A stretch of DNA of 32,000 bases, taken from positions 390,001-422,000 of the forward strand of contig OY970071.1 of the NCBI GenBank assembly GCA_963705375.1. The letters run 5' to 3'. Positions 5,072 through 32,000 of the stretch are shown here, piece after piece; position 1 is the first letter of the stretch, and each line of letters begins with the position of its first letter. This DNA is from Candidatus Saccharimonadota bacterium (GTDB taxonomy: Archaea; Micrarchaeota; Micrarchaeia; Micrarchaeales; Micrarchaeaceae). The translations under genes and the position numbers were made by a program. A model generated the notes under the pieces. The model ran no database searches and was not told where the DNA came from. It was given only the letters and a program-made list of their open reading frames with translations.

Positions 5072-5575
5072 TTAGACGGTCGTTGTATGAGATGTTAGAG
5101 AAAGTGCAGAGATGTAGATGCACGGCCTGCTTGGGACAGTGATGCACGAACTCATCGCACTCACATTGACAAGATAAGTGCCGGGCTGTATCAGCTGCTC
5201 GAGATAGCCGCTGACGTTTGCTGGCGTGTAAGCGGTCACATAGTTCAATCCTGTGTTCGTTTTCACCACGAATATTATCGAGTGCCCTATCTGGTTGTCC
5301 AGCGTACCGATGTAGATGCTGTGCATGCTAGAAGGAATCTGTATGAGCACGGTCTGCATTGCGGGATAGCCTTGAGAACTAACAGCTGTAGCTACGCTAG
5401 CAAGTTGATAGGCAGTGCCTTGCGCAGCGCTGACAGAAAGACTTGAAGAGGCATTTGATGCCTGCAACAAAGCCACCACTGTTACCGGCAGGAGTATCAG
5501 CAGCCCTAGCGCAAGAGTTATGAGAAGCTCCAGGCTGGACTGCGACCTCGTGGAAGTTTTTCTCTGCGCACTCAC
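5072..5575 (-). CDS. Pilin-like protein with class III signal peptide (167 aa); short paralogue of the 6804-8363 gene
   Basis: GTG start. The N-terminus MSAQRKTSTRSQSSLELLITLALGLLILLPV has a charged leader, a Q-S-S-L-E-L-L box and a hydrophobic helix, as in archaeal prepilin-type signals. About 150 aa (roughly 88% DNA identity by eye) are shared with the N-terminus of the 519-aa ORF. Confidence 0.65.
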   Translation of the reverse strand: MSAQRKTSTRSQSSLELLITLALGLLILLPVTVVALLQASNASSSLSVSAAQGTAYQLASVATAVSSQGYPAMQTVLIQIPSSMHSIYIGTLDNQIGHSIIFVVKTNTGLNYVTAYTPANVSGYLEQLIQPGTYLVNVSAMSSCITVPSRPCIYISALSLTSHTTTV

Positions 5576-6714: not shown

Positions 6715-6718
6715 GAAT

Positions 6719-6751
6719 AAGACCAAAAGAATATGAAAGAAAAAGTATAAG
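6719..6751 (-). promoter_or_regulatory. Promoter-like AT-rich box (copy A), duplicated at 8465-8500
   Basis: aagaccaaaagaatatgaaagaaaaagtataag matches aagaccagaaggatatgaaagataaagtataaa at 8465-8497, with about 4 mismatches over 33 nt. On the reverse strand it reads CTTATACTTTTTCTTTCATAT and sits about 30 nt upstream of the CBS ATG. Confidence 0.4.
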
Positions 6752-6790
6752 TACCAGGACGGTACGTGTGCGCAGAGAGTCCGGTGCTTC
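6752..6790 (+). pseudogene. Degenerate fragment of the 5' half of tRNA-Cys, a relic of the tandem duplication
   Basis: ccaggacgg / tacgtg / tgcgcagag are collinear with ccaggatgg / tacgtg / ctgcagag of the intact tRNA-Cys at 8523-8606. The D-loop and part of the anticodon stem are deleted, and no T-arm or 3' acceptor strand is present. Confidence 0.4.
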
Positions 6791-6803
6791 ACGTCTGTAA
6801 AGC

Positions 6804-8363: not shown

Positions 8364-8440
8364 GGAACCTCTACCTCTCTGGGCAGATCCAACCCAGCCA
8401 TTTTAATTCAGCAGATGAGGATGGAACTGTTTCTGCTTAG
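8364..8440 (-). pseudogene. Remnant of the 3' end of a second copy of the CBS gene; the rest is deleted
   Basis: 8364-8440 aligns by eye, with small indels, to 5576-5640, the 3' end of the intact CBS gene (for example ggaacctctacctctctgggcagatccaacc vs ggagcttctccctctctgaggagattgacc, then tcagcag and aactgtttctgcttag vs aacttttctccttgaag). It has no upstream ORF. Confidence 0.5.
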
Positions 8441-8464
8441 TTTTGACGGCAGCCTTCCACCCAC

Positions 8465-8500
8465 AAGACCAGAAGGATATGAAAGATAAAGTATAAATAA
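8465..8500. promoter_or_regulatory. Bidirectional TATA-box region (copy B). GTATAAATA lies 25-30 nt upstream of tRNA-Cys on the + strand, and TTTATAC faces the pilin-like gene on the - strand
   Basis: The AT-rich box gtataaataa (8491-8500) is about 25 nt upstream of the tRNA 5' end (8523). The same box is duplicated at 6719-6751. Confidence 0.45.
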
Positions 8501-8522
8501 GCGGATTGAAGAAAGATAGCAG

Positions 8523-8606
8523 GCCAGGATGGCGGATCGGCTACGTGACCGCCTGCAGAGCGGTATAGGAGGGTTCGACATTCAAACGAAAATCCCTCTC
8601 CTGGCT
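8523..8606 (+). tRNA. tRNA-Cys (anticodon GCA) with a 13-nt insertion (putative non-canonical intron) in the T-loop
   Basis: Hand-folded. Acceptor GCCAGGA/TCCTGGC is 7 bp and perfect. The D-arm is GCGG-ATCGGCT-ACGT. The anticodon stem ACCGC/GCGGT carries the loop CTGCAGA (GCA). The T-stem GAGGG/CCCTC is perfect but encloses 20 nt (TTCGACATTCAAACGAAAAT) instead of 7. Discriminator T is followed by a T5 run. Confidence 0.7.
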
Positions 8607-8610
8607 TTTT
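8606..8610 (+). terminator. Oligo-T tract immediately after the tRNA, an archaeal-type termination signal
   Basis: TTTTT begins at the discriminator position of the tRNA. Confidence 0.3.
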
Positions 8611-8676
8611 GTGTTCTCCTCGAGACCACGCTACTTACAAGATAGGAAAGAGCATGATGCTTACCTCATGACTGAC

Positions 8677-10368
8677 TCATCGGATCTGCGCGGATTGGAC
8701 TATGCTTTCATCAGGATAACTGCCCATGCAGTAGATGTAGCCGCCTGAGACTATGCAGCTAGTAGGTGCTTCTCCTTCATAGAGAGTATTGGTGGTCTGC
8801 CACACAGAGACGATCCCGTTGCCAAGGATCTGCGTGGTTTGGACGACGTTTTCTTGAGACATCCCACCACCCATGCAGTAGATGTAGCCATTTACTGTGA
8901 CGCAGCCTAGGCCATCTGCAGTAGCAGCGAGAGAATTGGTAGTCTGCCATGCCGAGACAAGCCCGTTGCCAAGGATCTGAGAAGATTGGACGAGGTCCCA
9001 GGGATACTCGCCACCCATACAGTAGAGGTAGCTGCCTGATGTGATGCAGCTATGGCCTGCTTCAGCTTCGTAGAGCGAATTGGTGGTCTGCCATGCAGAG
9101 ACAAGCCCGTTGCCAAGGATCTGCGCATATTGGACTGTGCTGTCTTGATTTTGGCCATATACGTGTGATGCGCCGCCCATGCAGTCGATGTAGCCACCTG
9201 AGACGACGCAGCTAGGAAACGCTTCTCCAACTACGAGCGTATTGGTGGTGGTCTGCCATGCCGAGACAAGCCCGTTGCCAAGGATATGCGCATATTGGAC
9301 TGTGCTTTCATAAGAAATATCTCCCGCTCCCTGGTTAGAATGGATACCGCCCATGCAATAGATGTAGCTGCCTGATGTGACGCAGCTAAACTGATATTCT
9401 TCGGTAGCAAGCGAATTGATAGGCTGCCATGACGAGACGATCCCGTTGCCAAGAATCTGTGCGGATTGGACGGTGGCAGTGACGTCGCCAGCAGGATCAG
9501 TGCCGCCCATGCAGTAGATGTAGCTGCCTGAGGTTACGCAGCTAATGCCCTCTTCTTCAGAATAGAGTGAATTGGTGGGGCGCCATATCGAGGTGCTATA
9601 AGAATAAGATAAAAAGCTTGCAGTTTCTGTGACCGCTCTCGTAGGCAGCGTGAGCGTCCACGGGGTCGAGCTGTGTGAAAGTGTGCCTGTCCAGTTCCTG
9701 AATGAGTAGTCGGCGTCTGGCGTCGCAGTAAGGGTGATAGTGTTTCCGGAATTGTAGTTTCCGGTGCAAGGTATCGTCGAACCTGCCGAACTGCACGACA
9801 CTGAGCCGCCAGAGCCAGCAGTTGCAGAGAAAGCATATGTAGAAGAGGATGGTATGGTCGTAGTGCCCCCACCCCCTCCACCGCCGTTTCCGAAGCCTGT
9901 GACCTTGGCACTTACAGATGCGATCTGCGCTACAAGATTAGATTGACCACTCTGGTTGTACCGCAGCCAGAGTGTTCCAGAGAAAGGAGTACCGAGTGCA
10001 TCCGAAGGCAGTGCGCACGGGAAGTCAACATTCTGCTGCGCACCTGCAGCAAGAGTAATATTCGCAGGGCTGAAACTGGAAGGCGCGGAAGAGCCGCTAG
10101 AGCAAGCTATGCCCGTAACATTTATCGGCCGGGAAGAGCCTATCGTCGTCGACAACAGACCATTGGAAAGCAGGACAGGATTACTGCACAAATAGCCTAC
10201 GCGCGTCGAGCACGCTGTGCTCGCAACGCCCGTGCCACTGTTGAAAACACCCAAGCTGAACAGAGAAGCGAGCACGACAGCAATTATCAGAATGGCCCAC
10301 CCATATGTCATAAGGTATTCCATTGCGGACTGGGCCTTCGCTCCAGATTTAAGAATGCACTTGTCCAC
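8677..10368 (-). CDS. Pilin-like protein: class III signal peptide, pilin-like domain, Gly7 linker, InlB-B-repeat-like Ig domain and a six-bladed Kelch-like beta-propeller
   Basis: KSGAKAQSAMEYLMTYGWAILIIAVVLASLF is a textbook archaeal class III signal. The track start (ATG 10443) would give a 37-aa leader, so I prefer the GTG at 10368 (leader MDKCILKSGAKAQ); this start is uncertain. Downstream come GNGGGGGGGTTT and then YAFSATAGSGGSVSCSS...ITLTATPDADYSFRNWTG. Six repeats of about 48 aa follow the pattern ILGNGxVSxWQxxNxL....C(V/I)xSGxY(I/L)YCMGG. Confidence 0.7.
   Translation of the reverse strand: MDKCILKSGAKAQSAMEYLMTYGWAILIIAVVLASLFSLGVFNSGTGVASTACSTRVGYLCSNPVLLSNGLLSTTIGSSRPINVTGIACSSGSSAPSSFSPANITLAAGAQQNVDFPCALPSDALGTPFSGTLWLRYNQSGQSNLVAQIASVSAKVTGFGNGGGGGGGTTTIPSSSTYAFSATAGSGGSVSCSSAGSTIPCTGNYNSGNTITLTATPDADYSFRNWTGTLSHSSTPWTLTLPTRAVTETASFLSYSYSTSIWRPTNSLYSEEEGISCVTSGSYIYCMGGTDPAGDVTATVQSAQILGNGIVSSWQPINSLATEEYQFSCVTSGSYIYCMGGIHSNQGAGDISYESTVQYAHILGNGLVSAWQTTTNTLVVGEAFPSCVVSGGYIDCMGGASHVYGQNQDSTVQYAQILGNGLVSAWQTTNSLYEAEAGHSCITSGSYLYCMGGEYPWDLVQSSQILGNGLVSAWQTTNSLAATADGLGCVTVNGYIYCMGGGMSQENVVQTTQILGNGIVSVWQTTNTLYEGEAPTSCIVSGGYIYCMGSYPDESIVQSAQIR
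8680..9560 (-). repeat. Six tandem coding repeats of about 144 nt (Kelch-like blades) inside the pilin-like gene
   Basis: Six CMG(G/S) blade cores recur: SYIYCMGG (twice), GYIDCMGG, SYLYCMGG, GYIYCMGG and GYIYCMGS. Each is preceded by QILGNG(I/L)VSxWQ. Confidence 0.7.
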
Positions 10369-10581
10369 ACGTGATTCCTGCCATTTTAACGGCACAGATA
10401 CATCACAAACAAACAATAAAAGGTTAAGCCTTCTGCCGAGCATGTAACCTTTACCATACGATAAGATGTTCGAATACAGAAGCAGATATCAGATACCACT
10501 TATTATTGTCAGGTAAAATCGTCTCAGGGCACTTGCCAGGTGTTGGAGCTGGCGGAGCGGATAGGAAGCCAGACGTCCAAG

Positions 10582-11607
10582 TCATCTAGAAATGTTTTCT
10601 ATATTTTTGGCATAAGGTTGAGAACAGACGCTCTGCGGGGCATTATTATCTGCTTCGCATATCTTCGCGGTTAGTAGATTTGCTTCTCCTATGATGGCCT
10701 GTGACTGCAATGAAGAGGTATTGTATATCATTGATACTACAGCTCCCCAGTTGCCATTACTAAAAATATTGAGGGGATCGTAGCCTGCACTCACAATAGC
10801 GGAGCTATTCGCAAAGTCTACAAAAGGTATACCGCCACAGGCTTTTGGTGGTGCATGAGTGTTACCGAGATCGATAGTTGAAAATATGTACTGCTCAGAT
10901 GAATTAGGTTGTTGGAGTAGGCCATACCCCATGAATCCTGTGGGGTTTTCTGTTTTTTGATTTGTTGTTTCTTCAATACCCACAAAAGAAATGTAAGAGC
11001 TAGTATAGGTCGAGTTATAGAAGGTGAAGGTAGGGGTCGATGGAGCATAGTCTGTAGCAGAGGAGGTCATAAAGTGAAGATTTGAGAAATTACCGAACCT
11101 TAGCAAAGCCATAATGATGGCCCATCTTTCTGCAGCACAATAAGGGCAGAACTCTGCACCGATGTATAGAATCTCTGGTTTATCATTGAGGGTTAGCGAA
11201 GGGGCATTGTCTATAGAGAAAATACTAGAAGGGCGGGCAGTACCTATACCTACCTGGTTGCTTATGTTATTTGGTATTTCAAGACTTGAAAGCACATATT
11301 GTGGGACAGGTTTATTATCGTAGCTAACAAGCGCTGTGCTGTTTTTGTTGCACGCCCCATTGGCACTCGGGGGATTCCAAATCATTTTGCTAAACGGCTT
11401 TGAACTGATAGTGATTGGGGCTTGCGAGCCGATCGAGTTTGTAATTGTGGTCGAAACGCTTGTGAGTATCGGAATATTGCTGCTTGACGAAAGAAAAATA
11501 TACACGATATAAAGAAGCATCAACAATATCAGACATGCTGAACCAAAAGCGGCCGTAAGTATCGGCGCTTTTCTGCACCTTACGACATTGGCTGATCTTT
11601 TACGCAC
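10582..11607 (-). CDS. DUF929-family membrane-anchored thioredoxin-like protein with a CPYC motif
   Basis: N-terminal TM helix ([26 protein letters not shown]). The core reads [64 protein letters not shown], which matches the conserved DUF929 core as I remember it. The start is a GTG in the track. Confidence 0.7.
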
Positions 11608-19869: not shown

Positions 19870-21399
19870 ATGGAGTACAGAAAGACCGAGATCCTTGGAA
19901 TAGCATTGCTGTTAGTGACGTTCCTCTTTGCTTCGGTGAACTCGATTGCATTGAGCAGCCCGGCGGTGCTTGACACGGATCCCAGCACTTACGTGATAGT
20001 CGTAATGATGATGCTGTTCCTCTTCATGATCTTCTCATTGAAGGAGGACCTGAGATTCGAGTACAAAAAGGAGAACATAGCGTACTCGATAGCGATATTT
20101 GTTGCGTACATACTGATCTTGTCGTACGCAAGGGTTGCGCTCTCGACAGCGTTCGAGTCATACAGAGTCGATTCACTTCTTTTCCCCTTATTGCTAATGG
20201 CGATGATAACTGCGCTGTTCGGCCTTGATGGGATAAAAAAGATGAAGTATTTGGAGGCCTACGCAGTGTTTGCGTCGCCCCTTTTGTTGTTGCGGATCCT
20301 CTCACTTGATAATGCATTCGCACATGTTAATGCCGTGACAATATACAGCCTGCTGAAAGCGATAGGCATGCCTGTCTCTAATTCCGGATTGGTGATAAGC
20401 GCAGGGAATATATCCAGCATCACGATATCGACTACGTGCGTATCATTGGGGATTTTTGCTGCGTTCATAATGTTCATGATCCCCATAGCGTATCTTTATG
20501 AAGGCGATGCCAGGTCCAAGGCATTCTGGCTCTGTTCGGGATGCGCCCTTCTGCTCGTGCTCAACATTCTAAGGATGTTTGGCCTGTCCTTGATGTGGAT
20601 GTACTATGGGATAGGATCGGTGGAAAACCTGATCCATACCTTTGCCGGCCAGATGCTGTTCTACATCACAATAGTAGCCATGGTGTTGCTCGCTTACAAG
20701 TACGGGCTTTTCTTGAAGAAACCTAAGAATGGCAAAAACTCGAAGAGTAAGAAAAGAGAACATTTGCAGAAAAACCTGATAATTCCTGCGGCAGTCGTTA
20801 TTGCTTTTGGACTGGCGTCGTTTATCCTATCATCACAGTACAGCACCGCCGCGTACGCCCCGGCGATTTCCTTCGGCAGAAGCACAGCAAATCCCATCTT
20901 GAACATTACAGAGCTAAGAAGCCTGGAAGTGGCAAACACCAACATCGTGCAGACAGGCGCAATCAAAGTTGGCAGCATGTTTGTGCTCCAAGGCAACAGC
21001 ACAAACAGCTCCACGTATGTCATTGCAACCGATTTGCAGAGCCCTGCGCAAGGCAAAACGGTGGTCAGTTATGATTCCATCAGAGACGAACACGCGTACG
21101 TTCTGCGTAACGGCGTCACGCTAAGAAGCGCGTTGGTAAGATCAGGGAACTTAAGCTTCTACGTCAACTATTTTGCGCTTCCTTATAATTTAAGCAGCAA
21201 CTATACCTCGATCAACTATGAAATTTTCAGGCTGGCAAAGAACGGAAGTGTTCCTTCATGTGGCGCGCTGAACTCGACGTCAGTCGGGTTTGAGAATTAT
21301 TTTGAGTCCGTCATCTACAACACGATGCGCCTTGATTTCAACTACAGCAACAAAGGGATCATGTGTGAGAGTTATCGTGTGGCAAGCGTGATCAAATGA
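19870..21399 (+). CDS. Exosortase/archaeosortase-family protein with an additional C-terminal extracytoplasmic domain of about 190 aa
   Basis: Polytopic N-terminal 280 aa carrying the family triad in order and spacing: Cys190 (ITISTTCVSLG), Arg235 (LVLNILRMFG) and His256 (ENLIHTFAGQ). A basic loop follows (KKPKNGKNSKSKKRE), then one more TM helix and a sequon-rich soluble domain. Confidence 0.6.
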   Translation: MEYRKTEILGIALLLVTFLFASVNSIALSSPAVLDTDPSTYVIVVMMMLFLFMIFSLKEDLRFEYKKENIAYSIAIFVAYILILSYARVALSTAFESYRVDSLLFPLLLMAMITALFGLDGIKKMKYLEAYAVFASPLLLLRILSLDNAFAHVNAVTIYSLLKAIGMPVSNSGLVISAGNISSITISTTCVSLGIFAAFIMFMIPIAYLYEGDARSKAFWLCSGCALLLVLNILRMFGLSLMWMYYGIGSVENLIHTFAGQMLFYITIVAMVLLAYKYGLFLKKPKNGKNSKSKKREHLQKNLIIPAAVVIAFGLASFILSSQYSTAAYAPAISFGRSTANPILNITELRSLEVANTNIVQTGAIKVGSMFVLQGNSTNSSTYVIATDLQSPAQGKTVVSYDSIRDEHAYVLRNGVTLRSALVRSGNLSFYVNYFALPYNLSSNYTSINYEIFRLAKNGSVPSCGALNSTSVGFENYFESVIYNTMRLDFNYSNKGIMCESYRVASVIK

Positions 21400-22370
21400 A
21401 GTTTGTTTTTGATGCCGGTGTTATCGTTTATAAAGGCCTAGGCACACGGAGAGAGTACCTGTTCCTGAGGAACCCGAGCGGCTGGCTTGACACGCCTAAA
21501 GGACACATGGAAGAGGGCGAGAGCACAGAAGAAGCCGCACTGAGGGAGACGGAGGAAGAGGCAGGCATCAAGGTGAATCCTGACCCGTTCTTCCGGGACA
21601 GCGTAGAGTACTGGTACGCGGAAAAGGGAGAGCGAACAAAGAAGAGGGTCACATTCTTACTGGCAGAAGTCGCAAAGGACACCAAGATCAAAGTGTCCGA
21701 CGAGCACGTCGATTACGCATGGTTGGACTACGCCTCTTCTTTGAAGATGCTTTCGTTCAAAGACCAAAAGGAGCTCATTGCCAGAGTCGGCGAATACATC
21801 GACAGACTTGAAGAGGTGCGAAAACTTAACGAGGAATACCGTGCGTTGCCGGCAAAGCAGAAGGCATGGGACCTCAGCAGGAGCTTCGTGACTGGCGAGG
21901 GCCCCCTTAACGCGAAAATCATGTTTGTAGGACAAGCGCCCGGAAGGCAAGAGGACCAGCAGGGAAGGCCTTTCGTTGGAACGTGTGGAAAGCTTCTTGA
22001 CAGGATGATCGGGCTTGCGGGCCTGAGCAGGAAGAATGTGTACATCACCAGCGTAGTGCAATTCTTCCCGCCGAAGAACAGGATGCCGACAGAAGAAGAG
22101 GTTAACATGTGCAAGAGGTTCCTTCTAAAGCAGATAAAGATAGTGAACCCTGAACTGATTGTCCTTCTCGGAGCGCTTGCATCAAAGACGCTTGCGAACG
22201 TCGACAGTGTGACCAAGGATCACGGAAAACTCCTGAAGCATGACGGGCGTGACTATTTGGTGATGCTGCACCCTGCAGCGGCTGTCAGGCTCAAGAAGTT
22301 CGTGCCGGTGATGGAGGGAGACTTCAGGAAGTTGAAGAGCATTGTGCAGCCGGCTTCAAAGAATGCCTAG
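21396..22370 (+). CDS. Fusion protein: N-terminal Nudix hydrolase and C-terminal uracil-DNA glycosylase-superfamily domain
   Basis: The Nudix box is GHMEEGESTEEAALRETEEEAGI. The UDG-like motifs are KIMFVGQAPGRQEDQQGRPFVGTCGKLLDRMI and VMLHPAAAVR. The start overlaps the archaeosortase stop (ATGA at 21396-21399). Confidence 0.75.
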   Translation: MKFVFDAGVIVYKGLGTRREYLFLRNPSGWLDTPKGHMEEGESTEEAALRETEEEAGIKVNPDPFFRDSVEYWYAEKGERTKKRVTFLLAEVAKDTKIKVSDEHVDYAWLDYASSLKMLSFKDQKELIARVGEYIDRLEEVRKLNEEYRALPAKQKAWDLSRSFVTGEGPLNAKIMFVGQAPGRQEDQQGRPFVGTCGKLLDRMIGLAGLSRKNVYITSVVQFFPPKNRMPTEEEVNMCKRFLLKQIKIVNPELIVLLGALASKTLANVDSVTKDHGKLLKHDGRDYLVMLHPAAAVRLKKFVPVMEGDFRKLKSIVQPASKNA

Positions 22371-22499: not shown

Positions 22500-24053
22500 T
22501 TATTTTGTGTCGATCGAATCCGTGAGCAACTCTCTAACTTTTTCTATACCCACTGCGACTATGAGCTTGCCAAGCTTGGGACCGCTGTCTTTGCCTATGA
22601 GTGCACCATATATGGTTTTGAAGAGATCTTCAGACTTTATCTGGCTGTCCTTTGCAACCTCGTATATGAGATTATGGACCTCCAGTTCGCTCATGTTAGG
22701 GGCCAGTCGTTTAATGAAGTCCGTTACTGCCGCTATGTTCTCTGTCACTTTGCTTTGCTTTAGAGAGAAGTTGTACCTCTCCGGAGCATAGCCTCTTGCT
22801 ATCCATTTCTCAATATAACCTGACAAGTACTTTACTCCGTTCTCATCCTGCAGCTTCTTGCCTACTTTTTCCCAGTCTTTGTAGATCTGGTAGTTCAGCA
22901 GCATGTCAGTGAAAGAAGAACTCCAAGAAAGAGTCTTTATGGCTATCTTAAAAGCAAGAAAACGCTTTTCGTCTGCCCTGTTCTCAGGCTTGCTTATGCT
23001 ATTCATACGCTCTACTTCATTGTAGAGCAGCATCAGTTTTTCGCCTGTAGGATCGATGTCTTTGTCCTGCTCGAGATTGGGCTCTATCAGAGCATACTTC
23101 AATAGTTCTGGAGGGACTAGTTCGCTTAATTCGATTGCACTCAGCCCTATTCCTTTTGACTTTGAATATTTCTTCCCTTTTAGGAACACAAAGCCGTATT
23201 TGAATAATATTGGCGGCTCTCTGTTCAGTATCTCCCGGTGTATCGCTTCTGCGGTTGTTGCACTACCCCCTTTTGTCATATGGTCTATGCCACTCCCCTC
23301 GACACTTGAATTGAACAAAGCCTGCCAGGCAGGCCAGTGAAGCCTCCACTGAAGCTTGTATTTATGGTCAGCGATCCTTGCCCTTCCTTTATAACCGCAC
23401 CCTTTCGTGTATTCCACATTCTTATCGCAAGCATAATCGTATTCTTCATCGTTATGCCCGGTCACCCTCGTGGTTGCTATCTTCCCACAATCCTCGCATA
23501 TGGGCATTATCGGACTCCAGTCCTTAAGTTCCTCTATCTTCCTCATGGAAGTTCTTGCAACCACCTCCTTCACTTTTTCTTCTTGGCTCAAGAACAGCTT
23601 TGCGTAATAATCCATCCTGCCGCTATCGTACAGCTCGTTGGCCCTCACCACATTCATATTGAGAGAGAGCTTCTTCATCAGCACTATTGCCTGATCAAGA
23701 TAGTGCTCTCCAAAAGAGCTATGGCAGTTAAGGGGATCTTTTGCATAGACAAGCGGCTTGCCCAATTCTGGCTTAAGCACAGACTCGTATTTTTGCAGTT
23801 CAAAGGGCACTCCGTCAAATGCGTCAAGTATGTCACCAACGAAGTACATCTCGGCATTTCCCACTTTCTCCTCGATTATCTGCTTTAAAACACCAGGATA
23901 GAGAAATTCGCACACAGTACCTAGATGGGCAGGCCCGCTAGTGGTCATGCCACCGGTTATAACGAATGGTGCAGCCTTTCCTGTGATGACACGCTCGGCC
24001 AGCACTTCAGTCCAGTGCCTGCAGATTGCTGCTTCCTTAGATTGTTCCTCCAT
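22500..24053 (-). CDS. lysK: Lysine--tRNA ligase, class I
   Basis: HWTEVLAERVI, GGMTTSGPAHLGTVCEF (HIGH-type motif) and KKYSKSKGIG (KMSKS-type motif). Length and architecture fit class I LysRS. A TTTTATAAAG box lies about 25 nt upstream of the ATG. Confidence 0.9.
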   Translation of the reverse strand: MEEQSKEAAICRHWTEVLAERVITGKAAPFVITGGMTTSGPAHLGTVCEFLYPGVLKQIIEEKVGNAEMYFVGDILDAFDGVPFELQKYESVLKPELGKPLVYAKDPLNCHSSFGEHYLDQAIVLMKKLSLNMNVVRANELYDSGRMDYYAKLFLSQEEKVKEVVARTSMRKIEELKDWSPIMPICEDCGKIATTRVTGHNDEEYDYACDKNVEYTKGCGYKGRARIADHKYKLQWRLHWPAWQALFNSSVEGSGIDHMTKGGSATTAEAIHREILNREPPILFKYGFVFLKGKKYSKSKGIGLSAIELSELVPPELLKYALIEPNLEQDKDIDPTGEKLMLLYNEVERMNSISKPENRADEKRFLAFKIAIKTLSWSSSFTDMLLNYQIYKDWEKVGKKLQDENGVKYLSGYIEKWIARGYAPERYNFSLKQSKVTENIAAVTDFIKRLAPNMSELEVHNLIYEVAKDSQIKSEDLFKTIYGALIGKDSGPKLGKLIVAVGIEKVRELLTDSIDTK

Positions 24054-24842: not shown

Positions 24843-25598
24843 TCACAGTTTCTTCCTGTCGAGCAGAATACGACTTTCTTCCTTTGTGAACGCGACTATG
24901 TTGCGCTCCTCTTTCGCAGCTAGGTTAGCTATCCGGTGCTCCTCTTTCACAGCGAAATCGGCAGCGGCATGCTCCTCATTGACTGCGAATGCAAGTATGT
25001 TGCTCCGTTCATAGAAGGGCACGAACATCAGGAGGAAGGCGACGAGCCCCATGGCATGAACAACATAGCTAGATGTAGTAAAGAAGGATATCGCGGTAAG
25101 GAACGCAAGAAGCAGCACCAAGGTGTAGATGACCATGAACATGAATCCACTGTACAGGTGCTCTATTCGCTCCTTTCTTGCAATGTATACCTCGAGAGAT
25201 ATGATAAATGCTATTATGAAAGACAGAGTTATTATCGATGTGCCGAGTGAGATGCCATAATCAGAATACCCCACATAGTAGAGCATCGAGCCTATCGATT
25301 TGACATAGCTGGCCGCGACGCTCATTATGAACACGGATCTCAGATTGCATTTCTTCTGGAATGCCTTATTGAAATTCTTAAGGTAGAAACCGAGGAGGAA
25401 TATCAGTACTGCAGGAAAGTAGAGAGAGTATAGAAGCTTCCCATCAGTTGACACGTTGAAAGGAGAAGATATGAAGAGCGCAAGTCCAGGATTGATGTTG
25501 ATGTGAATGTATGCGAGAGTCCCGTTGAAGTAGTATGTGAAGAATATGCCAAGTGCAAGGAAGATGAGACTTGCCAAGAGTGGCTTCAACAGCTTCAT
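24843..25598 (-). CDS. Polytopic membrane protein (251 aa, about 6 TM helices) with a C-terminal cytoplasmic tail of 10-11-aa acidic repeats
   Basis: Hydrophobic helices run throughout. The tail reads AFAVNEEHAA / ADFAVKEEHRI / ANLAAKEERNIV / AFTKEESRILL. Confidence 0.55.
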   Translation of the reverse strand: MKLLKPLLASLIFLALGIFFTYYFNGTLAYIHININPGLALFISSPFNVSTDGKLLYSLYFPAVLIFLLGFYLKNFNKAFQKKCNLRSVFIMSVAASYVKSIGSMLYYVGYSDYGISLGTSIITLSFIIAFIISLEVYIARKERIEHLYSGFMFMVIYTLVLLLAFLTAISFFTTSSYVVHAMGLVAFLLMFVPFYERSNILAFAVNEEHAAADFAVKEEHRIANLAAKEERNIVAFTKEESRILLDRKKL

Positions 25599-25708: not shown

Positions 25709-28700
25709 TTATTCCGTTACTTCTTTACTGTCTTTGGATGTGCGGCGTGACGCCAGGAACAGCACAACAACCACTATGACAACCACGATTGCGGCCAGGA
25801 GATAAGTGCTGCTTGACGCAGGTGGTGTGGTATTTGGCGTGTTGCTTGTTGATACGTTTGACTGCGCATTGGACGTGTTAGACGGGTTAGGCACTATTGT
25901 TGTTGTCGGAGTGTTGGTCGTTGTATTTTCCGGGATTGTGGTCGTTGAATGCGGGGCATTGTTGGTCCTATTTGTAACATTTGTAGCCGCAGGGATCGCG
26001 ATCGAGCATACGTCGACAGTGATCGTGTGCTCTATTGGCGGATAACTTATAGCAGTAACGTCCGCGGTGTAGTTGAAGTTGCTGTTCTTGAACAGCATTG
26101 AAGGTGAATCTAATTTAAGCACATACGTGATGCCGTTTATTATAAGGTCGGCCGAATCCGGCGCTATCGCGCTGAGAGTCACGGCGAATGAAGTGCCGTT
26201 CAGTGTGAAGTGTTCGTAGTTGGGTGTTGTGAAGTTGGTTATCTGGTAGCATGTTGTGCCGCTCCGGCTTACCAGTTTCAGGCCAGGGCCTTGAGGCGAC
26301 GATCCGCCACTACTTGCAGTGTAGCCGCCACCTCCACCAGAAGGTGGTGGCAAATACACTGATGTGAAAAGGCCTATGACAGGATCAGCAGGCACGTTGA
26401 AGGTTATCGTGCATGCTGCTGTATTGGAAGTGTAGTTGAGCAAATGCCATGAACTGCCGATCAGCTTGTACGGAGCAGCGTTCGAGCCACAAGGTATGCC
26501 TATCGTAAGGCCGTACACCATTGTCGACGGGGTGCTGTTGACCATTGTGAGGTTCAGAAGGACGACTTTTGAGTAGTGCGTGTAGCTGACGAATGGCGTG
26601 GATGTGTAGTTGCTGGTGACGTTGGAAATGATGACATTGGTGTTCACGTTGTTAGATGAGGTTATCGAGAGAGTCGCGTTCGCTTTTGAATATGTGATGT
26701 TTGTTTCTGTGTTGGATGGCACACTTACAACAAAATTATAAGTTGAATTTGGTATGACAGGGTTGACAGTTATCACATTGCTTGCCGAGTTGAAAACGTA
26801 TGCAGGCACAGTGCCTGTATCTGTCGCCGTTGCATTGAAAGTTAACTGTCCGAGTACCGTCGGCGTGTAAGAAAGCGTTATGCTGTTACCACTAGTATCA
26901 GGTATGGTATTTGTGCTGACCACATTGCCATCGTAAACAAGATTCACTGTGAACGGGCCTGCACCAGTGCCAGCAGGCACGTTAGCGGTATACGTTATGG
27001 CCTGCCCGATGTCTATGTTGTTGCTTGATGGCGTAATGGATATCGTAGGTATCGAGACCATGACCTGTGAAACTGCAGAGCTCGTGCTTCCGATATAGTT
27101 GGAATCGCCGGAATAAGCCGCTGTTATAGAATGGGACCCTAAAGTAAGAGTGTTTGTTGTGAATGTCGATGTGCTTCCAGATGTTGTGTTCGTGCCTATC
27201 TGCGTTGAACCGTCGTAGAACTTTACGACCTCGCCACTTGGCACAGACGGAGACACTATAGAGGTGAATGTTACGGAAGAGCCATACGTTGATGGATTTG
27301 CATTAGAGGCGACGGTCACCGTGGTCGGCATCTTATTGACCCCCTGTAAGACCGTGGAACTTGTGCTTCCGATATAATTGGAATCGCCGGAATACGTTGC
27401 GGTTACGGAATGAGTTCCTAAAGTAAAAGAGTTCGTTGTGAATGTCGATGTGCTTCCAGATGTTGTGTTCGTGCCTATCTGCGTCGAACCGTCATAGAAC
27501 TTTACGGTCTCTCCAGTTGGTACAGAGGGAGATACTGTAGCGGTGAATGTCACGGAAGAGCTGTACGTTGACGGATTTGCACTAGAGGCGACGGTCACTG
27601 TGGTCGGCATCTTATTGACCGCCTGCGAGAATGCGGAACTTGTGCTTCCGAGATAGTTGGAATCGCCGGAATACGTTGCGGTTACGGAATGAGTTCCTAA
27701 AGTAAAAGAGTTCGTTGTGAATGTCGATGTGCTTCCAGATGTTGTGTTCGTGCCTATCTGCGTCGAACCGTCATAGAACTTTACGGTCTCTCCAGTTGGT
27801 ACAGAGGGAGATACTGTAGCGGTGAATGTCACGGAAGAGCTGTACGTTGACGGATTTGCACTAGAGGTGATAGCCACAGTGGTCGGCATCTTATTGACCG
27901 CCTGCGAGACTGCGGAACTTGTGCTGGCAACGTAGTTGGAATCACCAGAGTAAGCAACTGTTATCGAATGAGTTCCTGCGGTAAGAGCATTTGTTGTGAA
28001 TGTCGCTGTGCCACCAGAAGATGTCGTACCAGTACCTATCTGCGTCGAACCGTCATAGAAAGCCACAGTCTCGCCACTTGGCACAGACGGAGACACTGTA
28101 GCGGTGAATGTCACGGAAGAGCCGTACGTTGACGGATTTGAATTAGAGTTGATTGCCGTTGTTGTAGGTATCGTATTGACAACCTGAGAGATTCCGGAAC
28201 TTGCACTGGCAACGTAGTTGGAATCGCCGGAATAAGCCGCTGTTATGGAATGCGTTCCTGCGGTAAGAGCATTTGTTGTGAATGTCGCTGTGCCACCAGA
28301 AGATGTCGTACCAGTGCCTATCTGCGTTGAACCGTCATAGAAAGCCACGGTCTCGCCACTTGGCACCGACGGAGACACTGTAGCGGTGAATGTCACGGAA
28401 GATCCGTAAGTTGACGGAGTACCGCCAGACAAAACAGCAATGATGGTCGACAGTTGGTTTACAACCTGCGAGACTGCAGAACTTGTGCTGGCAATATAAG
28501 TGGAATCGCCGGAATAAGCCGCTGTTATGGAATGCGTTCCTGCGGTAAGAGCATTTGTTGTGAATGTCGCTGTGCCACCAGAAGATGTCGTACCAGTGCC
28601 TATCTGCGTTGAACCGTCATAGAAAGCCACGGTCTCGCCGTTTGGCACAGACGGAGACACTGTAGCGGTGAATGTCACTGAAGAGCTGTACGTTGACGGA

Positions 28701-31186
28701 TTTGAATTAGAGGTGATGGTCACTGTGGTCGGCAGGTTATTGATCGCCTGCGAGAATGCGGAACTTGTGCTTCCGAGATAGTTGGAATCGCCGGAATACG
28801 TTGCGGTTACGGAATGAGTTCCTATTGCAAGAGCATTGGTTGTTAATGTTGCACCACTTCCGGATGTGGTTCCTGTGCCGATCTGGTTTGCGCCGCCGTC
28901 ATAGAACGTTACAGTCTCGCCATTTGGCACAGACGGAGACACTGTAGCGGTGAATGTCACGGAAGAGCCGTAAGTTGACGGATTTGCACTAGCGGTGACG
29001 GTCACTGCGGTAGGCATCTTATTGACAACCTGCGAGACCACTGAACTTGTGCCGCGGATATAGTTGGAATCGCCGGAATACGTTGCGGTTATGGCATGCG
29101 TTCCTGTAGTAAGAGGGTTTGTTGCGAATGTCGCCAGACTACCAGGAGATGTCGTACCAGTGCCTATCTGCGTTGAACCGTCATAGAAAGTCACGGTCTC
29201 GCCGTTTGGCACAGACGGAGACACTGTAGCGGTGAATGTCACTGAAGAGCTGTACGTTGACGGATTTGCACTAGATGTGACAGCCACAGTGGTCGGCATC
29301 TTATTGACAACCTGCGAGACTGCGGGACTTGTGCTGGCAACGTAGTTGGAATCGCCGGAATACGTTGCTGTTATCGAATGTGTTCCTAAAGTAAGAGTGT
29401 TCGTTGCGAATGTCGCTGCGCCACCAGACGATGTTGTACCGGTCCCTATCTGCGTTGAAGCATCATAGAACGTCACGGTCTCGCCGCTTGGCACAGATGC
29501 AGATACTGTGGCGGTGAATGTCACGGAAGAGCTGTACGTTGACGGATTTGAATTAGATGTGACAGTCACAGTGGTCGGCATCTTATTGACCATCTGCGAG
29601 AATGCGGAACTTGTGCTGGCAACATAGTTGGAATCGCCGGAATACGTTGCGGTTATGGCATGCGTTCCTGCGGTAAGAGTGTTTGTTGCGAATGTCGCCC
29701 TGCCGCCTGAGGTCGTACCTGTACCTATTGAAGTACCGCCATCATAGAATGTCACGGTCTCGCCGTTTGGCACAGATGGTGATACTGTAGCGGCGAATGT
29801 CACGGAAGAGCTGTACGTTGACGGATTAGTTCCCGAAGTCAAGGATACAGCTATTGAAGTACTGGCTTTGTTGACTGTCTGCGACAGAGGTGAAGACGTG
29901 CTTGCTGCAAAGTTGGAAGTTAGAGAGTATGCTGCAGTTATGGAGTGCGTGCCCGCAGACAGCGAAGACGTGGTAAGTGTGGCAGTTCCTGAAGAAAGTG
30001 CCACTGCAGAACCTACATTTGATCCGTCGACAGAGAACTGCACCGTACCGGTAGGCGTGCCCGCTGCAGATGCGACTAACGCAGTGAATGTCAAAGAATT
30101 GGAGTATGCCGACGGGTTAGTTCCAGAGGTCAAGGACACAACTGTTAAAGTGCTTGCAGGATTGACTGTCTGTGACAGAGGTGAAGACGTGCTTGCTGCA
30201 AAGTTGGTAGTTGCAGCATATGCCGCGCTTATTGAGTGCGTACCAGCAGACAAAGAGGATGTGGTAAGTGTGGCAGTTCCTGAAGAAAGTGCCACTGCAG
30301 AACCTACATTTGATCCGTCGATGGAGAACTGCACCGTACCGGTAGGAGTACCTCCTGTAGATGAGACTGTAGCGGTGAAGGTCAAAGAAGTGGCGTATGC
30401 CGAAGGGTTAGTCCCAGAGGTCAGCGATACGCTTGTCGAAGTGCTTGCAGGGCCGACGGTCTCCACGACGGCGGAGCTCTCACTACCCTCATAGGTATTT
30501 GCCACTCCGGAGTATATTGCCATTATAGAATGAGTCCCAACTGAGAGTGCAGAGGTGGTAAACGTTGCGACTCCAGCATTTAATGTACCTGTACCTATTG
30601 AAGTACCGCCATCATAGAATGTCACGGTCCCTGTCGGAGTTCCCTCTTTATAAGAAGTCACTGTTGCTGTGAAAGTTACAGAGGCACCGTATGTCGGAGA
30701 GGCTGAGGTCGTAGACAAGGCAGCATAGGTAGCAGGTACCTCTGCAATATACGAGTAAGGAAACAGGCCACCACCATACGGACTCACAGAATAGACGATG
30801 GCATAATTGCCTAGAGCGTTAGCGTCAGTGAATATGTACTCATTCGTATGATAGTAGTAAGCTTTGCCACCATAAACAATGACATAGTTGGTGGCTTGTG
30901 TTAAAGGTGTAAAAGCACAATCTCCGGTTCCGTCGCCCGGCCTACTTCGATTATACAGATAAAGCCAGCAGGACTGATTGGCGGTGAGTATGCTCTCGGT
31001 GAACGGGTAGTATACATCATAGCTCCCGGTCCCGGACGGGGGCAGATAGACCGCGTAGTTTGTCGGCACGCCTGATGGCGGGCTAGGCAGATATTGAGCA
31101 AATGCTGTTGATGGACATGCAGCAAGCAGAATAACCGCAGATAGCATAAGCAGTAAAAGCGGCTTTGTATAAGCGTACAGTTTCAA
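25709..31186 (-). CDS. Giant surface protein (1825 aa): signal peptide, N-terminal Tyr-rich domain, 13 tandem Ig-like repeats, further beta-rich domains, Gly-rich linker, conserved C-terminal cassette, Thr/Asn-rich stalk, TM anchor and RR
   Basis: TTG start in the track. The signal is MKLYAYTKPLLLLMLSAVILLAACPSTAFA. There are 13 units of about 93 aa with the bacterial-Ig-like pattern (S)VTFTATVSPSVP.GETV.FYDGSTQIGTGT...ATFTTN.LT.GTHSITA.YSGDSNY..STSS..SQ.VN. The C-terminus is ...TPPASSSTYLLAAIVVVIVVVVLFLASRRTSKDSKEVTE. Confidence 0.8.
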   Translation of the reverse strand: MKLYAYTKPLLLLMLSAVILLAACPSTAFAQYLPSPPSGVPTNYAVYLPPSGTGSYDVYYPFTESILTANQSCWLYLYNRSRPGDGTGDCAFTPLTQATNYVIVYGGKAYYYHTNEYIFTDANALGNYAIVYSVSPYGGGLFPYSYIAEVPATYAALSTTSASPTYGASVTFTATVTSYKEGTPTGTVTFYDGGTSIGTGTLNAGVATFTTSALSVGTHSIMAIYSGVANTYEGSESSAVVETVGPASTSTSVSLTSGTNPSAYATSLTFTATVSSTGGTPTGTVQFSIDGSNVGSAVALSSGTATLTTSSLSAGTHSISAAYAATTNFAASTSSPLSQTVNPASTLTVVSLTSGTNPSAYSNSLTFTALVASAAGTPTGTVQFSVDGSNVGSAVALSSGTATLTTSSLSAGTHSITAAYSLTSNFAASTSSPLSQTVNKASTSIAVSLTSGTNPSTYSSSVTFAATVSPSVPNGETVTFYDGGTSIGTGTTSGGRATFATNTLTAGTHAITATYSGDSNYVASTSSAFSQMVNKMPTTVTVTSNSNPSTYSSSVTFTATVSASVPSGETVTFYDASTQIGTGTTSSGGAATFATNTLTLGTHSITATYSGDSNYVASTSPAVSQVVNKMPTTVAVTSSANPSTYSSSVTFTATVSPSVPNGETVTFYDGSTQIGTGTTSPGSLATFATNPLTTGTHAITATYSGDSNYIRGTSSVVSQVVNKMPTAVTVTASANPSTYGSSVTFTATVSPSVPNGETVTFYDGGANQIGTGTTSGSGATLTTNALAIGTHSVTATYSGDSNYLGSTSSAFSQAINNLPTTVTITSNSNPSTYSSSVTFTATVSPSVPNGETVAFYDGSTQIGTGTTSSGGTATFTTNALTAGTHSITAAYSGDSTYIASTSSAVSQVVNQLSTIIAVLSGGTPSTYGSSVTFTATVSPSVPSGETVAFYDGSTQIGTGTTSSGGTATFTTNALTAGTHSITAAYSGDSNYVASASSGISQVVNTIPTTTAINSNSNPSTYGSSVTFTATVSPSVPSGETVAFYDGSTQIGTGTTSSGGTATFTTNALTAGTHSITVAYSGDSNYVASTSSAVSQAVNKMPTTVAITSSANPSTYSSSVTFTATVSPSVPTGETVKFYDGSTQIGTNTTSGSTSTFTTNSFTLGTHSVTATYSGDSNYLGSTSSAFSQAVNKMPTTVTVASSANPSTYSSSVTFTATVSPSVPTGETVKFYDGSTQIGTNTTSGSTSTFTTNSFTLGTHSVTATYSGDSNYIGSTSSTVLQGVNKMPTTVTVASNANPSTYGSSVTFTSIVSPSVPSGEVVKFYDGSTQIGTNTTSGSTSTFTTNTLTLGSHSITAAYSGDSNYIGSTSSAVSQVMVSIPTISITPSSNNIDIGQAITYTANVPAGTGAGPFTVNLVYDGNVVSTNTIPDTSGNSITLSYTPTVLGQLTFNATATDTGTVPAYVFNSASNVITVNPVIPNSTYNFVVSVPSNTETNITYSKANATLSITSSNNVNTNVIISNVTSNYTSTPFVSYTHYSKVVLLNLTMVNSTPSTMVYGLTIGIPCGSNAAPYKLIGSSWHLLNYTSNTAACTITFNVPADPVIGLFTSVYLPPPSGGGGGYTASSGGSSPQGPGLKLVSRSGTTCYQITNFTTPNYEHFTLNGTSFAVTLSAIAPDSADLIINGITYVLKLDSPSMLFKNSNFNYTADVTAISYPPIEHTITVDVCSIAIPAATNVTNRTNNAPHSTTTIPENTTTNTPTTTIVPNPSNTSNAQSNVSTSNTPNTTPPASSSTYLLAAIVVVIVVVVLFLASRRTSKDSKEVTE
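27060..30724 (-). repeat. Tandem array of 13 coding repeats (mostly 279-nt period) encoding Ig-like domains; some neighbouring units are nearly identical at DNA level
   Basis: 27381-27588 is repeated without mismatch at 27660-27867 (208 nt, offset 279). A second nearly identical pair lies near 28246 and 28525 (offset 279). Confidence 0.9.
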
Positions 31187-31447: not shown

Positions 31448-32000
31448 TTATAAAGGCTGCTGAGGTGGATCTTCGCTCTTTTTGTTTCCAGAGGAGATAC
31501 GGCGGGACGTCAGGAACGCCACCATGGCCAGGATGACTACGATTGCAGCCACAACATAAGTATTGCTTGAAGCAGGAGGTACGGCGGCAGATGCGGGCGC
31601 AGGCGTGTTGGTTGTTGATGCATTTACCGGCGCATTTGATGTGTTAGACGGGTTAGGCACTATTGTTGTTGTCGGCGTGTTGGTCGTTGTATTTTCCGGG
31701 ATTGTGGTCGTTGAATGTGTGGTATTGTTGGTCTGGTTTGTAACGGTAGGAATTGCCATCGCACACACATCGACGGTGATCGTGTGCTCTATTGGAATGT
31801 AGCTTATGCCCGTTACGTCTGCGGCGTAGTTGAAGTTGCTGTCCTTGAACAGCACTGTGGACGAATTGAGTTTAAGCACATAGGTGATGCCGTTTATTAT
31901 CAGATCGGTAGAATTTGGAGCAATTGTACTGACCGTCACAGCGAACGCGGTGCCGTTCAGCGTGAAGTGTTCGTAGTTTGGTGTTGTGAAGTTGGCCACA
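31448..32000 (-). CDS. 3' end (C-terminal 183 codons) of a second surface-protein gene that runs off the right edge; it carries the same C-terminal cassette as the 1825-aa protein
   Basis: ...NFTTPNYEHFTLNGTAFAVTVSTIAPNSTDLIINGITYVLKL...TTTIPENTTTNTPTTTIVPNPSNTSNA...VPPASSNTYVVAAIVVILAMVAFLTSRRISSGNKK is roughly 80-85% identical to the last 180 aa of the 25709-31186 product. The 'M' at 31999 in the track is a GTG in mid-domain, so the ORF continues beyond the window. Confidence 0.8.
   Translation of the reverse strand, partial: VANFTTPNYEHFTLNGTAFAVTVSTIAPNSTDLIINGITYVLKLNSSTVLFKDSNFNYAADVTGISYIPIEHTITVDVCAMAIPTVTNQTNNTTHSTTTIPENTTTNTPTTTIVPNPSNTSNAPVNASTTNTPAPASAAVPPASSNTYVVAAIVVILAMVAFLTSRRISSGNKKSEDPPQQPL

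Follow-up and report, generated by a model that had tools for sequence, protein, structure and literature searches.

Does a putative surface-protein sorting enzyme of a Micrarchaeota genome come with its own sorting signal, encoded only a few kilobases away? The question is raised by a 32,000-nucleotide stretch of DNA (contig OY970071.1, positions 390,001 to 422,000; hereafter the window, with coordinates counted from its first letter). In it, an open reading frame (ORF) at 19870-21399 encodes a 509-amino-acid (aa) membrane protein that resembles exosortases and archaeosortases, and two nearby surface proteins end in a shared PPASS(S/N)TY box, a hydrophobic helix and two arginines. Exosortases and archaeosortases decide whether surface proteins are attached or released, and Micrarchaeota are host-dependent archaea of the DPANN group with tiny genomes. 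The archaeal members of the superfamily on record, ArtA-E, come from no more than a subset of Euryarchaeota (PMC6098224), and a study of the S-layer of Candidatus Micrarchaeum harzensis leaves the anchoring mechanism open (bioRxiv 10.1101/2021.04.28.441871). With a probability of roughly 0.7, we conclude that the window encodes a new enzyme subfamily whose substrate signal is yet to be found and which, by analogy, would act as an EpsH-type transpeptidase or protease. A new sortase-signal pair made up of this enzyme and the PPASS(S/N)TY tail is not supported by co-occurrence. Our estimates for the several readings weighed below overlap and are not meant to sum to one.

The 509-aa protein is a real member of the exosortase/archaeosortase (EpsH) superfamily. 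It scores 65.3 bits on the Pfam model PF09721 (Exosortase_EpsH; curated cutoff 25.7), matched over residues 35-275, and 45.5 bits on TIGR04178 (cutoff 23), and both general models are passed by all 27 members of the family that were aligned. A reading made from the letters of the window alone (the sequence-only reading) had placed the protein in this family and picked out Cys190, Arg235 and His256, and it is borne out on both counts. The subfamily profile searches that it had suggested give a second answer, namely that no subfamily cutoff is reached. The best scores, XrtW 39.9 against 425 and XrtD 39.6 against 400, are about one tenth of the cutoffs; XrtX (35.8 against 170) and XrtA (31.2 against 208) also fall below theirs, and the same pattern, with no membership in any of the known subfamilies XrtA-XrtY and CrtA-C, holds across the 27 members. 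The bacterial exosortase models XrtW, XrtA and XrtD match 26 of the 27. The models for ArtA-E do not match the window protein even at E<=1; ArtC is weakly matched by a single member (5.9e-05), and the 25 families listed, of the 35 matched by the 27 members, include no further Art model. The earlier suggestion of a possibly new archaeosortase subtype is thus borne out as to the novelty and not supported as to the likeness: judged by profile scores, the affinity of the subfamily appears to lie with bacterial exosortase models, not with archaeosortase models.

This hitherto undescribed subfamily is restricted to, and widespread in, Micrarchaeota. Among 5.8 billion proteins there are 68 homologues, nearly all 495-530 aa long and at most 66% identical, which bear merely the database name "exosortase/archaeosortase family protein" and are attributed to Micrarchaeota-type archaea. 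Scanning one genome per species yielded 78 loci, all from Micrarchaeota-type metagenome-assembled genomes apart from two labelled Marsarchaeota, three labelled "archaeon" and two labelled Acidoferrum/Acidiferrales bacteria, the last of which are probably mis-binned. At 50% identity the subfamily comprises 111 clusters. No solved structure of any sequence relative was found. The sortase gene is split or truncated by frameshifts or stops in three places (L008:10001-11533, L111:5459-6824 and L112:4573-5922); many genes are fragmented in L111 and L112, probably through sequencing error rather than pseudogenisation. Family membership itself is not new, since databases already carry the generic label. 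What is new is a coherent Micrarchaeota-wide subfamily that has no curated model and combines a private ectodomain, an affinity to bacterial exosortases and a housekeeping synteny; we found no paper that ties Micrarchaeota or DPANN archaea to exosortases or archaeosortases.

Three motifs define the EpsH family, Cys-x-Gly, Asn-x-x-Arg and His-x-x-x-Gly, and were placed where three consecutive helices reach their outer ends (Haft et al. 2006, PMC1569441). In the 27-sequence family alignment, where identities reach down to 24%, the invariant columns are C190, N232, R235, H256 and G260, together with P205, A207, Y208, G212, F264 and Y265. The strict invariance of the cysteine, of N-x-x-R and of H-x-x-x-G at this level of divergence argues that catalysis of the usual family type is retained, and the enzyme is apparently intact and active. 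A model of the full protein built from the family alignment with AlphaFold2 (AF2; predicted local distance difference test, pLDDT, 82.2; predicted template modelling score, pTM, 0.83) positions C190 just before a helix at residues 193-209, R235 within helix 214-246 and H256 at the opening of helix 252-278. By the positive-inside rule, the Cys, Arg and His motifs would lie at the outer ends of consecutive helices. Because a basic loop comes after helix 252-278, H256 would be outside, and the same predicted topology would turn all three residues towards the outer face, as proposed for EpsH.

Beyond the polytopic core, every member of the family carries a loop, an extra transmembrane (TM) helix and a domain of about 183 aa. 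The sequence-only reading had described a basic loop, a further helix and a sequon-rich domain of about 190 aa, and all are present, the domain measuring 183 aa with 9 N-x-S/T sequons. The window protein has 10 K/R and one D/E in the 33-residue span of residues 272-304 (family range 4-12 and 0-3), and the AF2 model leaves the loop disordered between the core of about nine helices and helix 304-326. The charge of the loop suggests that it is cytoplasmic, and since one TM helix comes after it, the domain would be outside. Full and domain-only models agree on the predicted fold of this ectodomain: a helix, an antiparallel sheet of seven strands and a pair of C-terminal helices. Across the family the ectodomain carries 4-9 sequons, a density of 3.6 per 100 aa; composition would predict 1.7, and the core has 0.26. 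Exactly two cysteines occur in the ectodomain of all 27 members (C464 and C499 in the window). The sequon excess and the conserved cysteine pair suggest that the ectodomain is probably N-glycosylated and disulfide-bonded. All indirect criteria point to a genuine, conserved domain on the outside of the cell.

Searched exhaustively with HMMER, 1.84 billion representative proteins yielded the ectodomain in 111 only, either at about residues 320-510 of proteins of about 500 aa or in shorter entries. The shorter entries (about 240 aa) were considered as standalone EpsI-like proteins and rejected as such; they are gene fragments, because those inspected begin inside the last core helices of the sortase. 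The 859-aa entry P0116 is a read-through fusion of the sortase with the downstream Nudix-uracil-DNA glycosylase (UDG) gene. Since all matches are fusions, fragments or this read-through, the ectodomain is private to the sortase family. No Pfam or NCBIfam family matches it in the 27 members. The earlier idea that the extra domain could be EpsI-like is rejected at the sequence level, as PF11984 and TIGR02914 match none of the 27 at E<=10. The structure prediction that had been proposed as a further check gave a domain model with pLDDT 81.6 and no significant fold match, neither the full nor the domain-only model having an ectodomain match in the Protein Data Bank at E<=0.001 with Foldseek. A helix-grip/START/PYL fold was not accepted (best E 2e-3, TM-scores 0.2-0.36, root-mean-square deviation >9 Å).

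That resemblance bears on one alternative, in which an exosortase-fold protein no longer acts on proteins, as in exosortase-related families for which no substrates are known, and instead, for example, handles glycans or lipids through its ectodomain. The faint helix-grip/START-like signal (TM-scores <=0.36), a cysteine motif altered to C-x-x-x-G and the lack of a cognate signal in the sampled loci would all fit it. However, the fold resemblance lies under any accepted threshold, and the catalytic motifs are kept without exception in sequences as little as 24% identical. We regard this alternative as very unlikely.

Comparison with characterised systems helps to place the subfamily. As in the EpsH exosortases (XrtA/PEP-CTERM; PF09721, TIGR02602, TIGR04178), there is a polytopic core with exact N-x-x-R and H-x-x-x-G motifs and an invariant cysteine, the motifs would sit at the outer ends of consecutive helices according to the model, and the best partial similarities are to XrtW, XrtA and XrtD. 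Unlike those exosortases, the window enzyme belongs to an archaeal host without an outer membrane, lies in a housekeeping block rather than an exopolysaccharide locus and has a C-x-x-x-G motif; its subfamily scores stay near one tenth of the cutoffs, and no PEP-CTERM match was found among the candidate tails. EpsH-EpsI fusion exosortases are documented (PMC1569441), and the XrtD and XrtW models (486-494 aa) likewise join an exosortase core to an additional C-terminal region. The alignment of the window protein nevertheless ends with the core, at position 308 of 494 in XrtW and 250 of 486 in XrtD; compared by sequence, there is no EpsI match (TIGR02914/PF11984, E<=10), and the ectodomain is confined to the Micrarchaeota family.

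The best functional analogy is ArtA of Haloferax volcanii, which processes secreted, glycosylated surface proteins with a tripartite C-terminal signal, PGF-CTERM. ArtA is not known to have a fused ectodomain. Both are archaeal members of the superfamily with a conserved Cys and Arg, which are essential in ArtA (PMC9263693); they differ in the third residue, His here and Arg253 in ArtA, and the window tails have no PGF motif. Moreover, PGF-CTERM is kept across many euryarchaeal genera, whereas PPASSxTY is not kept even among sister lineages.

The genomic setting of the sortase is a housekeeping synteny, with no substrate or polysaccharide operon. Across the family, the conserved block consists of archease (-), sortase (+), Nudix-UDG (+), lysyl-tRNA synthetase (LysRS; -) and a winged-helix-like gene of about 180 aa (-). 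The archease of the window is assigned by synteny, PF01951 being annotated at other loci. Sortase and UDG genes are neighbours throughout the family; in the window the latter (21396-22370, +) fuses a Nudix domain to a family-4 UDG (PF00293 + PF03167; TIGR00758 162 bits), and its start overlaps the sortase stop by ATGA. In four loci only (the window, L001, L079 and L082) is the block followed by a gene for a giant surface protein. The distance of 4.3 kb between the sortase and the tails had been noted correctly (sortase stop at 21399, giant gene at 25709), and we read it as a lineage-specific juxtaposition because the conserved block is followed by a giant gene in so few loci.

What lies between the block and the giant gene also differs. 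In the window and L001 it is a polytopic membrane protein of 251-286 aa (L001:9838-10698, -) with C-terminal repeats of the type A(A/V)(D/N)F(A/T)(V/R)KEE..., and in L079 and L082 a gene for a signal peptide peptidase (SPP; PF06550) that directly adjoins the giant gene (L079:15703-16863, L082:15117-16235, +). The membrane protein of the window was considered as a diverged SPP and dropped, as it shows no similarity to the L082 gene at that position. SPP could be an alternative intramembrane protease acting on C-terminal helices.

We turn to the tails themselves. The 1825-aa giant protein of the window carries Ig-like Big_3_5 repeats in 13 stretches (789.6 bits, Pfam) and has homologues in L001, L079, L082 and L108. 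Two consecutive Big_3_5 units of about 95 aa within 26500-28300 (-) are nearly identical (KMPTTV.VASSANPSTYSSSVTFTATVSPSVPTGETVKFYDGSTQIGTNTTSGSTSTFTTNSFTLGTHSVTATYSGDSNY), which points to an internal duplication of very recent date or to repeats that are still being homogenised. The features that the sequence-only reading had seen on the two surface proteins are all there: a Thr/Asn/Pro-rich stalk, the box, a hydrophobic stretch of 17-18 residues, and RR followed by 10-16 further residues. The tail fits the tripartite plan of the PEP-CTERM class, in which signal-peptide proteins end with a box, a hydrophobic helix and a cluster of basic residues. As had also been noted, it is not a PGF, PEF, VPXXXP or PIP motif: no curated CTERM model matches it, and ten candidate tails searched with these models gave nothing above cutoff that involves a motif.

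Taken alone, the window shows only paralogy of the box, because identity between its two tails is 72% along the whole alignment of 176 residues. The box proves to be more than paralogy once L001 and L108 are compared, because it is near-invariant there while the stalk diverges and varies in length. L001 (sortase 68% identical) has an orthologous giant protein, 50% identical over the C-terminal 196 residues, with an exact PPASSNTY and a stalk divergent in sequence and length. L108 is a 1.7-kb peat contig with two tail genes in tandem. One is orthologous to the C-terminus of the giant protein; the other encodes a complete protein of 224 aa that consists of a signal peptide, a single Ig-like region, a stalk and the APASSNTY tail and has no CYQITNF...TVDVC domain. 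The five copies (two in the window, one in L001 and two in L108) give the consensus [PA]PASS[SN]TY on two architectures. When they are aligned on the box, identity is almost zero in the 20 preceding residues, while the helix and an R-(T/I)-S-(R/K/S) segment after it are also similar. The box is followed by 16-18 hydrophobic residues and then RR or R.SRK, with 12-18 residues beyond the helix, and the serine codons TCA AGC are identical in all three copies examined at the DNA level.

L079 and L082, whose sortases are 66% and 58% identical to that of the window, have homologous giant Big_3_5/MBG_2 proteins next to them (L079:19272-20822 + 20925-21518, -; L082:16249-21527, -) without the PPASSxTY box. 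These proteins retain the C-terminal domain and, after it, the stalk, the helix and the basic end; the juxtamembrane sequence differs and forms a second tail type, ...(S/A)(V/I/T)P(T/A)(V/I)(V/M)PVT(V/L)GI.VAIAIG..YYNSR(K/R)..., which is common to the tandem paralogues of L079. Its (V/I/T)PxxxP element recalls the VPXXXP-CTERM of archaeosortase B, although no NCBIfam CTERM model matched.

If the tail were the cognate signal of the enzyme, as had been proposed, it should be found where the enzyme is found. The sample covers about 20 kb of each genome, roughly 2%, and would therefore miss most dispersed substrates. Within it, neither tail type follows the presence of the enzyme over the 78 loci. 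Scanning 1.46 Mb of loci with a profile of the tails, only the five known copies score, and the candidates come to two in the window, one in L001 and two in L108, with the second type twice in L079 and once in L082. About 1.3 Mb of Micrarchaeota loci contain no other recurrent juxtamembrane motif beyond these two lineage-specific types. Neither the five-sequence tail profile nor a single 175-aa tail query found a match at E<=10 among 5.8 billion proteins; this null is meaningful because in a local control true tails score 71-97 bits on the profile, which corresponds to E<1e-11 even at 5.8 billion sequences. A degenerate DNA pattern for PPA-S-S-(S/N)-T-Y-hydrophobic-hydrophobic-A had 26 matches in JGI metagenomes, 25 of them out-of-frame chance and one genuine (L108). 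A metagenome scan with the tail alignment produced 600 pattern matches, none confirmed by tblastn, a weak null since low-complexity filtering probably masks tails. The nearest database relatives, L111 and L112 (sortases 72% and 68% identical), have no tail in 10 kb downstream in L111 and about 4 kb in L112, a contig too short to reach the place that the tail genes occupy in the window.

PEP-CTERM and PGF-CTERM are recognisable across phyla or many genera (PMC1569441; PMC6098224). The modularity of that class, with a matching phylogenetic profile, was not seen here: there are five copies, on two architectures, in about three organisms, against an enzyme in at least 78 species, and the box varies from one lineage to the next while the catalytic motifs of their enzymes stay identical. 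We therefore read [PA]PASS[SN]TY as a lineage-specific anchor module of tandem paralogues and not as a signal that co-occurs with the enzyme; the signal role is unproven, and co-occurrence disfavours it. The idea of a cognate sorting signal is accordingly not supported, the box being confined to the window, L001 and L108. A tail restricted to paralogues and not co-occurring with the enzyme, the outcome named beforehand as fatal to that idea, is nearly what is observed, yet the tail sits on two architectures.

Two explanations of the tails follow, and the same observations bear on both. According to the first, which we give nearly even odds, they are ordinary permanent type-I anchors of fast-evolving, giant adhesin-like proteins, and the sortase acts on other, Micrarchaeota-wide substrates; the box would be kept for juxtamembrane packing, for O-glycosylation or for another protease, such as the SPP encoded in L079 and L082 beside the giant gene. 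It is favoured by a phylum-wide enzyme in a housekeeping block paired with a lineage-restricted tail, by homologous proteins bearing two unrelated tail types and by a box, helix and cytoplasmic tail conserved as a single module. Other surface substrates are conceivable, since S-layer anchoring in Micrarchaeum harzensis is open; against this, the S-layer protein described there has no reported C-terminal helix (bioRxiv 10.1101/2021.04.28.441871). Nor did the approximately 1.3 Mb of Micrarchaeota DNA contain an alternative recurrent C-terminal signal, and a plain anchor would not usually have a box conserved at seven of eight positions right next to the helix.

According to the second, PPASSxTY-TM-RR is a dedicated sorting signal of the sortase, cleaved at the box so that the giant proteins are anchored or released, and such boxes evolve quickly, each lineage having its own, (V/I/T)PxxxPVT(V/L)G in L079 and L082. 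The tails do resemble known signals: as in PEP-, PGF- and VPXXXP-CTERM, a motif, helix and basic cluster end signal-peptide-bearing, Ser/Thr/Asn-rich and poorly annotated surface proteins, and paralogues share the module. The signal peptide at the opposite end, the near-invariant box after a stalk of variable length and almost no identity, its presence on both giant proteins and the 224-aa single-Ig protein without the CYQITNF domain, the short hydrophobic stretch of 16-18 residues, and a giant gene at most 4.3 kb from the sortase in the window and L001 all favour cleavage. Secreted proteins with a single C-terminal helix are also rare (13 of 1345 sampled ORFs), and eight of the 13 carry one of the two tail types. 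However, the enzyme, with invariant motifs, occurs in at least 78 species and the box in about three organisms; orthologous giant proteins beside 58-66%-identical sortases are without it, while PEP and PGF are conserved far more widely (PMC1569441; PMC6098224). The co-conserved TM helix and R-T/I-S-(R/K/S) segment, with the same TCA AGC codons, are expected of recently duplicated anchor modules. The cytoplasmic tails of 12-18 residues exceed the roughly five described for PEP-CTERM (PMC1569441), no curated CTERM model matches, and the linkage is lineage-specific, being absent from the L111 and L112 sequence (only about 4 kb downstream in L112). On balance, a dedicated signal seems unlikely.

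Several points weigh against our preferred reading of a new, active subfamily whose signal lies elsewhere. PPASS-type tails or a family-wide signal could lie in the parts of the genomes outside the 2% that was read, and a box conserved beside a fast-evolving stalk, on two architectures (L108) and before a stretch of 16-18 residues, is typical of sorting signals. In most members the glycine stands at +4 from Cys190 (C-x-x-x-G), whereas the EpsH C-x-G motif has it at +2. Catalysis and topology are predicted for every member of the family. Which residues are essential here is uncertain, because Haloferax ArtA requires Cys173, Arg214 and Arg253, so that its third critical residue is an arginine and not a histidine (PMC9263693).

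With these caveats, the new subfamily may work as follows. By analogy with ArtA and with the proposal for XrtA/EpsH, the enzyme would be a membrane-embedded cysteine transpeptidase or protease working at the outer face of the membrane. It would recognise a short juxtamembrane segment of secreted surface proteins and cut off their C-terminal helix and basic tail; the proteins would then be released or transferred to a lipid or other acceptor, and the ectodomain may assist by holding on to the substrate or the acceptor. In their overall architecture the giant Ig-repeat proteins are suited to be substrates (signal peptide, stalk, box, 17-18-residue helix and basic residues), and their tails may simply be permanent type-I membrane anchors.

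A bolder reading, which we consider doubtful and a shade less probable than a dedicated signal, joins all these elements. A phylum-wide DPANN sortase with its own glycosylated recognition ectodomain would co-evolve with boxes lineage by lineage, PPASSxTY in one and (V/I/T)PxxxPVT(V/L)G in another, cutting the anchors off giant Ig-repeat adhesins for lipid re-anchoring on the surface of an episymbiont; the faint helix-grip-like resemblance of the ectodomain would then hint at binding of a lipid or other hydrophobic ligand. If true, Euryarchaeota would no longer be alone in having an archaeosortase-type system whose substrate class is defined, and there would be a route into how the surface proteins of Micrarchaeota attach.

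Whichever substrates it acts on, the enzyme appears to be a core part of Micrarchaeota envelope biology, because Micrarchaeota keep it almost without exception and it has intact motifs and a private ectodomain, and lies in a housekeeping block. The subfamily is an obvious candidate for the anchoring of S-layer and adhesin-like proteins in Micrarchaeota, and a curated model could be built from the present family alignment. PPASSxTY should not spread as a new CTERM class without proteomic evidence. The coordinates of the features discussed are listed in Table 1.

Table 1. Features of the sortase and surface-protein locus, in window coordinates.
Feature	Position	Strand	Basis or remark
Exosortase/archaeosortase-family protein, 509 aa	19870..21399	+	PF09721, TIGR04178; serves here as the founding member of a subfamily specific to Micrarchaeota
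Polytopic membrane core, residues 1-282, about 9 helices	19870..20715	+	AF2 model
Cys190-Val-Ser-Leu-Gly194, putative nucleophile motif	20437..20451	+	C190 invariant, G194 >=90% conserved
Asn232-Ile-Leu-Arg235, EpsH N-x-x-R motif	20563..20574	+	N232 and R235 invariant
His256-Thr-Phe-Ala-Gly260, EpsH H-x-x-x-G motif	20635..20649	+	H256 and G260 invariant
Basic loop KKPKNGKNSKSKKREHLQK, residues 283-301, predicted cytoplasmic	20716..20772	+	K/R excess; low pLDDT at residues 289-298
Additional TM helix, residues 302-326 (304-326 in the AF2 model)	20773..20847	+	Model, sequence
Family-specific ectodomain, residues 327-509, predicted alpha/beta	20848..21396	+	Domain model pLDDT 81.6; 9 sequons; Cys464, Cys499
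251-aa polytopic membrane protein	24843..25598	-	No Pfam/NCBIfam family; seen only beside PPASS-type giant genes (window, L001)
1825-aa giant surface protein	25709..31186	-	Signal peptide-like N-terminus, 13 Big_3_5 repeats, CYQITNF...TVDVC domain, stalk, tail
PPASSSTY box directly before the C-terminal helix	25802..25825	-	Near-invariant in 5 copies
Hydrophobic helix LLAAIVVVIVVVVLFLAS (25748-25801) and basic/cytoplasmic tail RRTSKDSKEVTE (25712-25747)	25712..25801	-	Sequence
Tandem paralogue, C-terminal 183 aa (cut by the window end)	31448..31999	-	Same domain, stalk and tail RRISSGNKKSEDPPQQPL
Paralogue elements	PPASSNTY box 31556-31579, helix 31505-31555	-	Sequence

Other genes around the sortase were recorded as well. 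In the window, three genes at 5072-10443 (-) encode proteins with archaeal class III (pilin-type) signal peptides (…QSSLELL…), one of which, 588 aa long, combines an InlB B-repeat-like domain with Kelch motifs; a CBS-domain gene lies within this cluster and a DUF929 protein (10582-11607) adjoins it. In L003-L010, too, short pilin-like genes and CBS genes are found upstream of the sortase block. SecDF-like genes are also present in the window, as read from the translations; with the pilin-type signal peptides, an archaeal-type LysRS and the archease, they give it an archaeal look.

In L084, whose sortase is 58% identical, genes for a polyprenyl synthase, a methyltransferase, an Rce1-like CPBP protease (PF02517) and a UbiA prenyltransferase (L084:4176-7338) lie directly upstream of archease and sortase. 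This prenylation/CAAX-processing-like set, seen in one locus only, could bear on lipid anchoring. A conserved protein of about 800 aa with an N-terminal helix is encoded 5-9 kb downstream of the sortase (L004:18510-20924, -, with equivalents in L005, L006, L007, L010 and L084); it was considered as the oligosaccharyltransferase AglB and dropped, with no Pfam match at E<=0.01.

Finally, the class of LysRS is swapped at one syntenic slot, on the same strand between the Nudix-UDG and winged-helix-like genes. The window (22500-24053, -) and L004 (L004:12849-14396) have the class I, archaeal-type enzyme (TIGR00467 263-264 bits against 147.6), and L001 (L001:7659-9095) and L003 (L003:12101-13531) the class II, bacterial-type enzyme (TIGR00499 548-555 bits against 427.6), to which most remaining loci also belong by length and Pfam. 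The class differs even between the window and its closest relative, L001.

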